Assembly (NCBI GenBank): GCA_951406725.2
Contig: OX597821.1
Coordinates: 23,498,001 to 23,562,000 of the forward strand
DNA: 64,000 nt
Direction: 5' to 3'
Source: Octopus vulgaris
Lineage: Eukaryota
A program made the translations under genes and the position numbers. This document shows, piece after piece, positions 5,105 through 55,019 of the stretch. Below the pieces are notes generated by a model. That model was not told the origin of the DNA. It did not search any database and was given only the letters and a program-made list of their open reading frames with translations. Numbering within the stretch: the first letter of the stretch is position 1; each line of letters starts with the position of its first letter.

Positions 5105-5264
5105 CGGGCTTCTTTCAGTTTCCGTCTACCAAATCCACTAACAAGGCTTTGGTCGGCCTGAGGCTACAGTAGAAGACACTTGCCCAAGTTGCCACGCACT
5201 GGGACTGAACCCGGAACCATGTGGTTGGTAAGCAAGCTACTTACCACACAGCCACTCCTGCGCC
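4806..5264 (-). mobile_element. SINE family C, full length
   Basis: Head AGGCGCAGGAGTGGCTGTGTGG on the minus strand through the AGTAAAAG tail. Confidence 0.9.
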
Positions 5265-5742
5265 TATATATATATATATGTGTGTGTATGTATATGCGTG
5301 TGTTTGTGTATCCTATTACCAATTGACAACTGGTGCTGGTGTGTTTATGTCCCTGTCACGTAACATGGTTCAGCAAAAGAAGCCGATAAAATAAGTACCG
5401 GGATCGACTCATCCGACTAAGTCTTCACGGCTGTGATCCTGAAATAAGTAAAAGAATAATATATATATATATATGTATGTGTGTGTCTGTGTGTGTATAT
5501 GTATATATATATATATGAGCAATATGAGAGATCACTATGTGGCTCCCTTGTATGCTAAAAATAGACGTCAAGCCGTCTTACCACTAAATCTGTATTCTCA
5601 ACTTAGTGTTTACGAGCTAGATTCACGGTCCTCGGACACATTTTTAAGTGTGCTGGCCACTAAGTTGAAATTGATATTATTTAATAATATTAATTTCTAC
5701 TCTTACTATATATCCATGTGTGTGTATATATATATATATATA

Positions 5743-38025: not shown

Positions 38026-38044
38026 TTTTACATACATATATATA

Positions 38045-38077
<33 letters not shown>

Positions 38078-38289
38078 ATCTATATAATAAATCTCTGAAC
38101 GAGGTATAAACAGTAACTGCACGACAATGTGAAGTATATTTGCCATCTAAATATGGATAACCACTAAGGGTGGATGTTACTGTAGCTTGTAGCCCCAGAA
38201 GAACATCTTCTCCAGCTGGCTATTGACACACTTTCTGTACCCTATCGGTATTTGCAGTGGGAAGCCATCCTTCCCATCGTCGACCTGAC

Positions 38290-38348
38290 GTGATACGCAC
38301 GGACCCGGGTTTCTGGATATTTACCCGTCATCAGCGCACGACAATCAC
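38290..38348 (-). ncRNA. Type I hammerhead ribozyme
   Basis: Minus strand: GTGAT tgt CGTGCG-CTGATGA-cGGGT aaat ATCCa-GAAA-CCCGGG-TC-CGTGCG t ATCAC; GUC site, palindromic stem III. Confidence 0.8.
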
Positions 38349-38497
38349 CGGTCTTCGATGCGAAGGGGTCCCGATGCAAAAACATATATACCAGGACTTC
38401 GATGGTTGCAACGAGAACTTCGTAACTAGCCGTCCATACTCTGTTTATATCTGAAATTTACATATATAATAACAAAATGTATGTAGCAAAATGCAGT

Positions 38498-38552
38498 ACA
38501 CCTTCTGGGACATCCGGATATTTCAGTGACTACTCGCTTCTTCAGCCGGTGT
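38498..38552 (-). ncRNA. Type I hammerhead ribozyme (second, different sequence)
   Basis: Minus strand: ACACCGG-CTGAAGA-AGcGA gtag TCaCT-GAAA-TATCCGGATG-TC-CC agaa GGTGT; GUC site. Confidence 0.75.
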
Positions 38553-39037
38553 TGGGAAAAAACTGCAGACTCCCTTTAAGATTTACTTTATTCTTATATA
38601 GTTTTCATTCATTGGACTTAGACTCAGCCTGGGCAGGATCGCCGTGGGTTTTAATCTATCATATAGAGCTCACTGCTTATTTTAGTCAGGTGTTTATTTT
38701 ATCACTCTCTACTTATTGAGTCGCTCGGTTACGTTCTTAGCGCAGCTTGGTTCCTCTAAGGACACAACTTCGTTTACTAAAGATTTGAACCCAGAAATAA
38801 TATATCGCAAGGCATTTTGCTTGCTACTCTACACATCTGCCATTCGATTGCCATAAAAAATATGCTTCAAATTTTGGTACAAGGCTAGCGATTTTAGGAG
38901 GAGGGTTTAGTCGATTATATGAACTCCAGCAAATGACTGGTACTTTATTTTAACGGCCGTGGAAAGATGAAAAGTAAAGTTGACCTCGGTGACATCTGAT
39001 CTTGGAACATAAAGAGCCAGAACAAATGCCACAAGGC

Positions 39038-39690
<653 letters not shown>

Positions 39691-39769
39691 TGACAATCTT
39701 TCCCAGCAAATGAAAGAAGTAGACAGCAATAATAATTCTCTAAAAGGAATATAGACAGTAACTGCTCGA

Positions 39770-40082
39770 CAACATAAGGGACTAAAGCCATCTGAATATG
39801 GCTAGGGACAGGGCAGGGTGGTGGGGGTGTTACTGTTGCATTTAGCCCCAGGCGAACATCGACGTCACCAGAAAGGCTCGACACCGTCACGGTGCCCTAA
39901 ACCTGCAAAGGGAGGTAATTCCCAAAGGGGGAATTACCTCCCTTTGCAGGTTTAGGGCACCGTGACGGTGTCGAGCCTTTCTGGTGACGTCGATGTTCGC
40001 CTGGGGCTAAATGCAACAGTAACACCCCCACCACCCTGCCCTGTCCCTAGCCATATTCAGATGGCTTTAGTCCCTTATGTTG
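39770..40082. repeat. Perfect palindrome: 154-bp arms, 5-nt loop
   Basis: 39770-39923 is the reverse complement of 39929-40082; loop AAAGG. Confidence 0.95.
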
Positions 40083-40140
40083 AAAGAAGTAGAGTCAGCT
40101 GTTTATACATCCGATGTCATGTTAGATTTTACTGTTTACA

Positions 40141-53809: not shown

Positions 53810-54690
53810 ATCTATTTGCCAACATAAATTGGCAGTCCTGATTAGGACGATGTTACTACCCTTTTTAGCCCCAGGAAAACATCTTTTCCAGCTGGCTACC
53901 AACGCACAACTGCATCCCCCGACAAGGGAGTTAATGTTCCCACTCACCTTAAACGGTACCTTGTTTCTGGGTTATTTCTTTTCGTCGTCGCAGGATAACT
54001 GTTGGCTAGAGATGGCAGCACTAGGCCCTTCTCCAGTTATATACTTTTAAAATGACACACAGTCACTCATCTCATTAAGAGGAAAACAATTAGTCTTCAA
54101 TCTCCGAGCGAGAAGTAAGTAGTAACGGTACTGCAGAGTAAAAGGCGGCGAGCTGGCTGAAACGTTAGCACGCCGGGCGAAATGCTTAGCGGTATTTCGT
54201 CTGCGTTACGTTGTGAGTTCAAATTCCGCCGAGGTCGACTTTGCCTTTCATCCTTTCGGGGTCGATAAATTAAGTACCAGTTACGCACTGGGGTCGATGT
54301 AATCAACTTAATACCTATGTCTGTCCTTTTTGTCCCCTCTGTGTTTAGCCCCTTGTGGGTAATAAAGAAATATGTACTAAAGAGTAAAGTCTATTTGCCT
54401 TCGTAAAATAGCAGTCCTGATTAAGACGATGTTACTACCTTTTTTTAGCCCCAGGAAAACATCTTTTTCAGCTGGCTACCGACTACTAGGAACATACCCA
54501 ATGCTTAAATAATTATATACATACAATTTAAATTATATCATCGGCGAGTTAACTTGGAATTCCCTAACGACAACGTAGCCTTCATATAATTAAGGTATCT
54601 TCAGCCTGACTAGTAGCTGGCTGAGTACCCCTCTTTGAGTAATTATTATATCTGACGATCTGCTAGCTAGGAAACATATGTAGCCAGAAC
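53810..54690. mobile_element. Tandem pair of the 38-kb retrozyme-like unit (333-bp period after removing SINE B at 54143-54388)
   Basis: GATGTTACT..TAGCCCCAGGAAAACATC..CTGGCTA at 53849 and 54428; hammerhead remnants downstream. Confidence 0.65.
54143..54373 (+). mobile_element. SINE family B, tail 1
   Basis: TSD GTACTGCAGAGTAAA / GTACTAAAGAGTAAA. Confidence 0.92.
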
Positions 54691-55019
54691 TTTACCTGTT
54701 CCACTCCCTCAATTTGGATTTCTATTCGCATTCATAGTGACTCAAGTTGCTAACTGTGGATTATGTAATTTTGTTTTCAGTTTACCGAACTTCGATATGA
54801 GAAAAGCCCACAACCCTCGCACATAACTTATTTTTGTTCCTGAACCTTGTTTGTTTATATCTATTACGGACTGCTCAAAGCTTACAAACTTCCCACACTT
54901 AGATCCTTGGATCTTATAATTACATATCGATGTGTGTGTGTGTGTGTGAATGTATGTGTATGTATGTGTGTTATATGTACATATATGTATGTATGTGTGT
55001 ATATATATATGTATGTATA

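Follow-up and report, generated by a model that had tools for sequence, protein, structure and literature searches.

We found two type I hammerhead motifs, HHR1 and HHR2, on the minus strand of a 64,000-nt stretch of the Octopus vulgaris genome (hereafter the window), at the positions given for them in an earlier note on this DNA (Table 1). The genome comprises 2.8 Gb in 227 contigs and is rich in microsatellites and short repeats. The HHR1 core consists of CUGAAGA (38545-38539), GAAA (38524-38521) and a GUC with C17 at 38509, which predicts a cut after 38509, and that of HHR2 consists of CUGAUGA (38334-38328), GAAA (38313-38310) and a GUC with C17 at 38302, with the cut predicted after 38302. 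The predicted cuts thus bound a piece of 207 nt (38508-38302), and HHR1 has a near-palindromic stem III (AUAUCCGGAUGU) and HHR2 a palindromic one (ACCCGGGU), both as claimed in the earlier note. Each motif has an extra base before GAAA; stem I of HHR2 is built of 6 bp, an internal loop and a further 5 bp, and its stem II of a C-A mismatch followed by 3 bp. The locus is flanked by two high-copy repeats (39040-38866 and 38026-37850), which we take to be octopus SINE-like elements.

Table 1. Features of the hammerhead locus and its surroundings (positions in the window)
Feature	Positions	Strand	Description
HHR1	38498..38552	-	Type I hammerhead in decay, from an old family with dispersed members; two C-A mismatches
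HHR2	38290..38348	-	Type I hammerhead inside the 306-nt repeat copy
Piece between the predicted cuts	38302..38508	-	119 nt of single-copy DNA and 88 nt of repeat; not a conserved unit
306-nt repeat copy	38084..38389	-	Monomer truncated at the 5' end (306 of 357 nt); hammerhead repeat family with many copies, likely a non-LTR retrozyme
Single-copy segment with HHR1	38390..38865	-	Likely target DNA beside which the repeat copy inserted
TA/TACA microsatellite	38029..38083		At the 3' end of the window's repeat copy
Sister-family pieces	39729..40085		Two head-to-head truncated pieces of a 360-nt unit, lacking the hammerhead part

Matches to the bare hammerhead core pattern in the window are within chance expectation (18 matches against a shuffle mean of 9.0, with 11 of 100 shuffles as high). 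The Rfam hammerhead models, which the earlier note had proposed as a check, gave no match at the gathering score and do not figure among the 21 Rfam matches at E<=10, a silence that carries no weight against hammerhead variants as short as these. HHR1 and HHR2 fold no better than shuffled sequences (z -0.13 and +0.32, respectively), and the hammerhead is the minimum-energy fold of neither. Since the bare pattern is common, Rfam gives no match and the folds equal those of shuffles, the reality of the motifs had to be tested through their relatives. A 35-nt HHR2 pattern had 48 exact matches in the genome and an HHR1 pattern 22, each against 0 control matches; we regard both motifs as real because each belongs to a repeat family.

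The 357-nt repeat family of HHR2 and its 360-nt sister

A genome search with an 841-nt query (38080-38920) returned 4136 first-look candidates, and in the best 40 of the 4136, which were scored, all matches except the window itself are confined to the final 306-310 nt of the query; the stretch common to the family copies is 38389-38084. Full-length matches are 91-94% (about 92%) identical to the window copy, and copies of the family occur on most large contigs. We examined 53 other loci among thousands (29 picked by BLAST and 24 by exact pattern, with five duplicates and the window's own locus left out), and the counts given for this family are lower bounds. The window copy is without a 51-nt linker that precedes the equivalent of 38389 in other copies (the linker's end falls at this place in 32 of the 53), and upstream of this linker the 3' part of the unit is found again. 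Because one locus (L090) displays two HHR2 sites 357 nt apart, the upstream cut site reading GCC, the unit is 357 nt long and has one hammerhead. The linker itself (e.g., L003, L004, L017 and L028) forms a small hairpin with its loop in both orientations among the copies, which suggests recurrent micro-inversion. At another locus (L174; G000:C23:42842910-42843371), the 5' half of HHR2 (core, stem II and GAAA) has given rise to a head-to-tail 50-nt minisatellite.

The retrozyme-like monomers of this family are non-coding (longest ATG frame of 47-68 aa), with a GC fraction of 0.45-0.46, and a natural 357-nt monomer (one copy), modeled as a circle, is predicted to fold more stably than all of 60 shuffles (z -2.95). 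The HHR2 core is intact in 21 of the 29 BLAST-picked copies, and HHR2 in the window pairs in the same way as the rest of its family. Recurring in 26 of these 29 copies, the basal C-A of stem II, which the earlier note had suspected of weakening HHR2, is the family norm. As to insertion anatomy, the unit is preceded by a direct partial copy, 51 nt upstream, at 14 of the 53 other loci and by an inverted piece at 15, and it is followed by a TA/TAT repeat at 30. Of the 24 pattern-picked copies, 15 end at unit positions 257-267, about 43 nt before the longer end, and 6 reach 306. The family begins and ends in TA-rich sequence, and there is a short TA-rich overlap at the 38389 junction. Penelope-like elements are described as producing partial tandems and inverted 5' copies, with a 30-40 bp tail and a bias for microsatellites (in the relevant parts of PMC8557442), and the partial tandems, inverted 5' pieces, shorter and longer 3' ends and TA-repeat ends of the 357-nt family match these insertion features. 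We consider this family a likely non-LTR retrozyme moved by Penelope-like elements.

About 1.3 kb from the hammerhead locus, the window also holds pieces of a sister family with a unit of 360 nt, which is 61% identical to the 357-nt monomer. A genome search for this family returned 660 candidates; the best 40, which were scored, include copies 100% identical over the query. It forms 360-nt arrays (L135; G000:C1:161876480-161884401), with at least 20 units in two opposite arms at one locus and seven of seven units identical at L135, and with such identical arrays the family is very young. In the sister hammerhead, every helix of HHR2 is kept with three double-sided changes: a G-C to A-U replacement in stem I, another at the first pair of stem II, and the conversion of the stem III palindrome from ACCCGGGU to ACCAUGGU. 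Within the HHR2 family, stem changes are nearly all one-sided, and support for the fold therefore comes from the sister family: the predicted HHR2 fold is supported by these compensatory changes between the 357-nt and 360-nt families. In place of the C-A of HHR2, the sister hammerhead has U-U; its core bears a U4C change, which is reported to lower hammerhead activity in vitro yet permit viroid infectivity (as covered in PMC3088659). As a modeled circle, the 360-nt monomer is likewise predicted to be more stable than all of 60 shuffles (z -4.71). The 360-nt family is more promising than the HHR1/HHR2 pair itself.

A third, older repeat family is represented in the window at 54385-54700 and 53849-53898 (about 82% identity, 1945 candidates); it has a short motif in common with the 357-nt unit, and inspection of 20 of its loci by eye found no intact hammerhead.

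HHR1 and the 207-nt piece

HHR1 lies in single-copy DNA. A genome search with 38392-38700 returned a single candidate, which was the query itself, and in three probable DNA runs (three organisms from two studies, with one long contig per run at this segment) the depth over 38393-38862 is flat at 30-68, 6-8 and 7-12, as against summed depths of thousands to hundreds of thousands on the 357-nt unit. Exact patterns requiring the stem III of HHR1 matched only the window, and its relatives surfaced only when mismatches were allowed. The 21 other HHR1 loci (the 22 pattern matches plus L038, with the duplicated L047/L048 counted once and the window left out) share with the window no more than 25-64 nt of alignable sequence (75-96% identity). 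Their number is a lower bound that comes from a pattern search; the HHR1 covariance model was run on the window only, where nothing but HHR1 itself reached a meaningful score.

In the register of its family, HHR1 has C-A mismatches in both stem II (C38536-A38527) and stem I (C38548-A38506), so that the damaged one is HHR1 rather than HHR2, for which the earlier note had considered a weakening. The ACACC/GGUGU distal helix that the same note had drawn appears confined to the window copy, and the centre of the palindrome reads CCGG, as against YTAG in most relatives. The hammerhead fold of HHR1 (-3.4 kcal/mol) lies about 8 kcal/mol above its minimum (-11.6 kcal/mol). The family copies, picked by a pattern over the core and stem II, have 71.4% of cells paired, as compared with 27-43% for slid controls, but this is no better than in column shuffles (213 of 500 as high). 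The hammerhead fold is thus compatible with the HHR1 family, and these copies show no covariation beyond that of column shuffles. Of the 11 differences seen in organism D, 3 lie within the 55 nt of HHR1, where 1.1 are expected (P 0.09), and one of them breaks the palindrome (one contig, depth 7.9); these differences give no sign of constraint on HHR1. We consider HHR1 a likely remnant of an older Penelope-like or retrozyme family, which likely cuts poorly or not at all.

The earlier note had viewed HHR1, the 207-nt piece and HHR2 as one cassette, the unit of a non-coding, self-processing mobile RNA family. Such a family does exist, and its self-processing is likely, but its monomer is 357 nt rather than 207 nt and has one hammerhead, and the HHR1/HHR2 pair does not recur. 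The family boundary at 38389 falls midway through the 207-nt piece, and the GUCCUGGU/AUCGGGAC hairpin, which had been offered as structure internal to that piece, straddles the junction of the two elements, where related copies read AUUGGGAC. Against 200 shuffles, the piece folds like shuffled sequence (z -0.14 as a circle, -0.25 linear), and the region holding the two motifs displays no self-similarity between them. The earlier note had named a lack of co-occurrence at other loci as refuting the cassette, and co-occurrence was absent in every test that we ran. The genome-wide BLAST search proposed for the twin architecture retrieved the high-copy HHR2 repeat, the single-copy HHR1 segment and, among the matches scored, no further twin. 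None of the 53 other HHR2 loci has an HHR1-family motif upstream of HHR2 (two have weak HHR1 probe matches, E 0.002-0.008, that are not in the twin arrangement), and none of the 21 other HHR1 loci has a 357-nt unit downstream on the same strand, with one having a copy about 900 nt upstream on the opposite strand. When the whole genome was searched for a CUGANGA of any kind placed 188-218 nt ahead of HHR2, seven matches came up (five of the seven loci were viewed), comprising the window, three without GAAA after the upstream word and three in the HHR2-derived 50-nt minisatellite; of the seven, only the window itself is a heterologous twin. Hence, the twin cassette is not supported, and the 207-nt arrangement is most likely an accident of one locus.

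An HHR1-HHR2 heterodimer was rejected, because the stem I strands do not pair crosswise (-2.4 and -0.4 kcal/mol for the swapped strands, as against -6.9 and -10.2 kcal/mol for their own), and a double hammerhead of the two motifs is therefore excluded. Depth rises on the 3' side of the HHR2 cut, but this was dismissed as a cleavage sign, as the same pattern is seen in DNA runs. In five runs guessed to be RNA, where assembled contigs indicate presence only, paralogous copies cover the 357-nt unit, and the contigs, again indicating presence only, give no cover on 38396-38860 and no 38302-38508 joint among the matches listed, which speaks neither for nor against expression.

Relation to known elements and origin of the locus

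The kinship of both motifs with the type I hammerheads of Penelope-like elements and retrozymes, claimed in the earlier note, is borne out. As far as metazoan non-LTR retrozymes are characterized in PMC7229834 and 10.64898/2026.07.22.740005, the octopus families resemble them in having one type I hammerhead per short non-coding tandem unit, in unit size (357/360 nt here and 350-390 bp in the mussel), in a GC content under 50%, in occurring as monomers, dimers and multimers, and in the self-paired monomer; a mismatch at the stem II base is likewise seen in the axolotl HHR_Amex2 (U-U), and such retrozymes, like the octopus families, co-occur with autonomous Penelope-like elements (same sources). 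Both the 357-nt and the 360-nt families consist of head-to-tail units within the range of about 150-450 nt expected of non-LTR retrozymes. Unlike these metazoan counterparts, the 357-nt family has a lineage-specific sequence, and its representative in the window is a truncated monomer adjoining a hammerhead of unrelated origin; circular RNA and cleavage are predictions here. Hammerheads in the pseudo-LTRs of Penelope-like elements share the extra nucleotide after position 9, the palindromic stem III and the occurrence of many divergent solitary motifs per genome, and the elements themselves share partial tandems with inverted 5' pieces, a tail and TA-repeat targets (in the portions of PMC4209133 and PMC8557442 that treat them). 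Their close motif pairs are described as lying 100-700 bp apart on opposite strands (PMC4209133, in the part concerned), unlike the window pair, which is on one strand and comes from two families. Plant LTR retrozymes also have two same-strand hammerheads flanking a non-coding RNA; however, theirs is a single type III hammerhead that occurs twice, in identical LTRs separated by about 700 bp (in the account of PMC7229834), whereas the window motifs are type I, non-identical and without a terminal repeat. In the literature searched, we found no description of such a retrozyme family in cephalopods, and the main text of a recent octopus repeat annotation (PMC13282606) mentions neither ribozymes nor retrozymes.

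Through a GIY-YIG search of the genome (6136 candidates, 150 scored), we uncovered many intact 781-aa frames. One of these loci (L125) has a 456-nt direct repeat at both ends (430-885 and 5217-5672) in the manner of pseudo-LTRs. The 781-aa protein is presumably a reverse transcriptase with a C-terminal GIY-YIG domain. An intact 781-aa frame of a many-copy Penelope-like family is also found at L124 (2164-4506), and the terminal repeat of the 781-aa family, inspected by eye, appears to hold a hammerhead with a U3-A8 core variant and a palindromic stem III. Compared at the DNA level, 30 of the 150 GIY-YIG loci listed, together with six longer stretches around such loci, show no similarity to the 357-nt unit. 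Penelope-like coding fragments lie near 2 of the 53 unit loci, without a common terminal repeat, and may be chance neighbours; they are broken, and lie at L028 (872-1373, head to head) and L018 (249-871). A tblastn comparison of the 781-aa protein with the window and the HHR1 loci yielded nothing among the matches listed, 38390-39040 contains no long frame, and in the loci examined no RT or GIY-YIG frame is joined to HHR1 or the 357-nt family. We infer an autonomous Penelope-like partner for the 357-nt family.

We observed two families with a boundary between them, a unit of 357 nt, its insertion anatomy and no second twin. The two hammerheads come from unrelated families, and very probably met through the insertion of a truncated copy of the 357-nt repeat, 119 nt downstream of a hammerhead that was old and decayed. 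By analogy with animal non-LTR retrozymes (as outlined in parts of PMC7229834, PMC4209133 and 10.64898/2026.07.22.740005), tandem 357-nt copies would be transcribed and cut by each HHR2 at its GUC into 357-nt monomers, which a host RtcB-type ligase would close into circles; with the RT and GIY-YIG endonuclease supplied by an autonomous Penelope-like element, these would then be copied into TA-rich sites. The copy in the window likely arose in this way and landed as a dead end next to an older hammerhead: a lone monomer without a second HHR2, it is likely unable to regenerate the circle. In each of the three probable DNA runs, the sequence continues across the junction between repeat and single-copy DNA and reaches 39-47 nt into the unit; no empty-site allele was seen in them, so that the order of events is read from divergence. 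Under uniform density, 0.007 HHR1-HHR2 pairs are expected (22 x 4136 copies), which makes this particular pairing improbable, and about 1.5 pairs involving any hammerhead would be expected only on the assumed figure of some 5000 other hammerheads.

An accidental pair could nonetheless work: read-through transcription would allow both motifs to cut as monomers and release a chimeric 207-nt RNA that is circularisable at this locus. Both cores are intact and on one strand, the junction is common to three organisms, the pairing pattern of HHR2 equals that of its family, and a stem III of two pairs and a tetraloop is a form found in invertebrate retrozyme hammerheads (in the sections of PMC7229834 concerned). 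Given the two C-A mismatches of HHR1 and its fold about 8 kcal/mol above the minimum, its organism D differences with no sign of constraint, the inability of the motifs to help each other as a dimer and a 207-nt piece that is unstructured relative to shuffles, we hold such activity to be improbable. It is equally doubtful that a retrozyme, by inserting beside a relic, gave rise to a new cassette whose two ribozymes excise and circularise the chimeric 207-nt RNA. Alternatively, a Penelope-like RT might have jumped from a retrozyme RNA to an HHR1-family RNA, leaving the chimera in one insertion. The same orientation, close spacing and short TA-rich overlap at the junction would fit such a template switch, and the CCGG centre of HHR1, as against YTAG, hints at a separate subfamily; a donor of the same age, however, should have left copies about 92% identical, and none were found, the HHR1 relatives align only over the short stretches given above and the HHR1 segment is single-copy in the three runs. 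This makes a template switch quite improbable. The model of the earlier note, in which a conserved mobile family uses two different hammerheads to excise its 207-nt RNA as a circle, has the reality of both cores and of their spacing in its favor; with no second locus in any test, a repeat boundary that cuts through the 207 nt and a folding z of -0.14, it is exceedingly improbable. We therefore retain the insertion of a truncated retrozyme copy beside an unrelated relic.

The twin cassette, then, is most likely an accident and matters little. If the two-ribozyme cassette were real, it would offer a snapshot of how a retrozyme family could arise from two unrelated hammerheads, and a real 207-nt circle would mean that a new circular RNA can be formed by joining ribozymes of unrelated origin. 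What the locus reveals is that this genome has no fewer than two families of hammerhead repeats, and that one of them, with identical 360-nt arrays and a U4C core, is very young. These families extend non-LTR retrozymes to a cephalopod genome, and the young 360-nt family, together with the intact Penelope-like elements, would offer a good system for testing whether such elements mobilise retrozymes.
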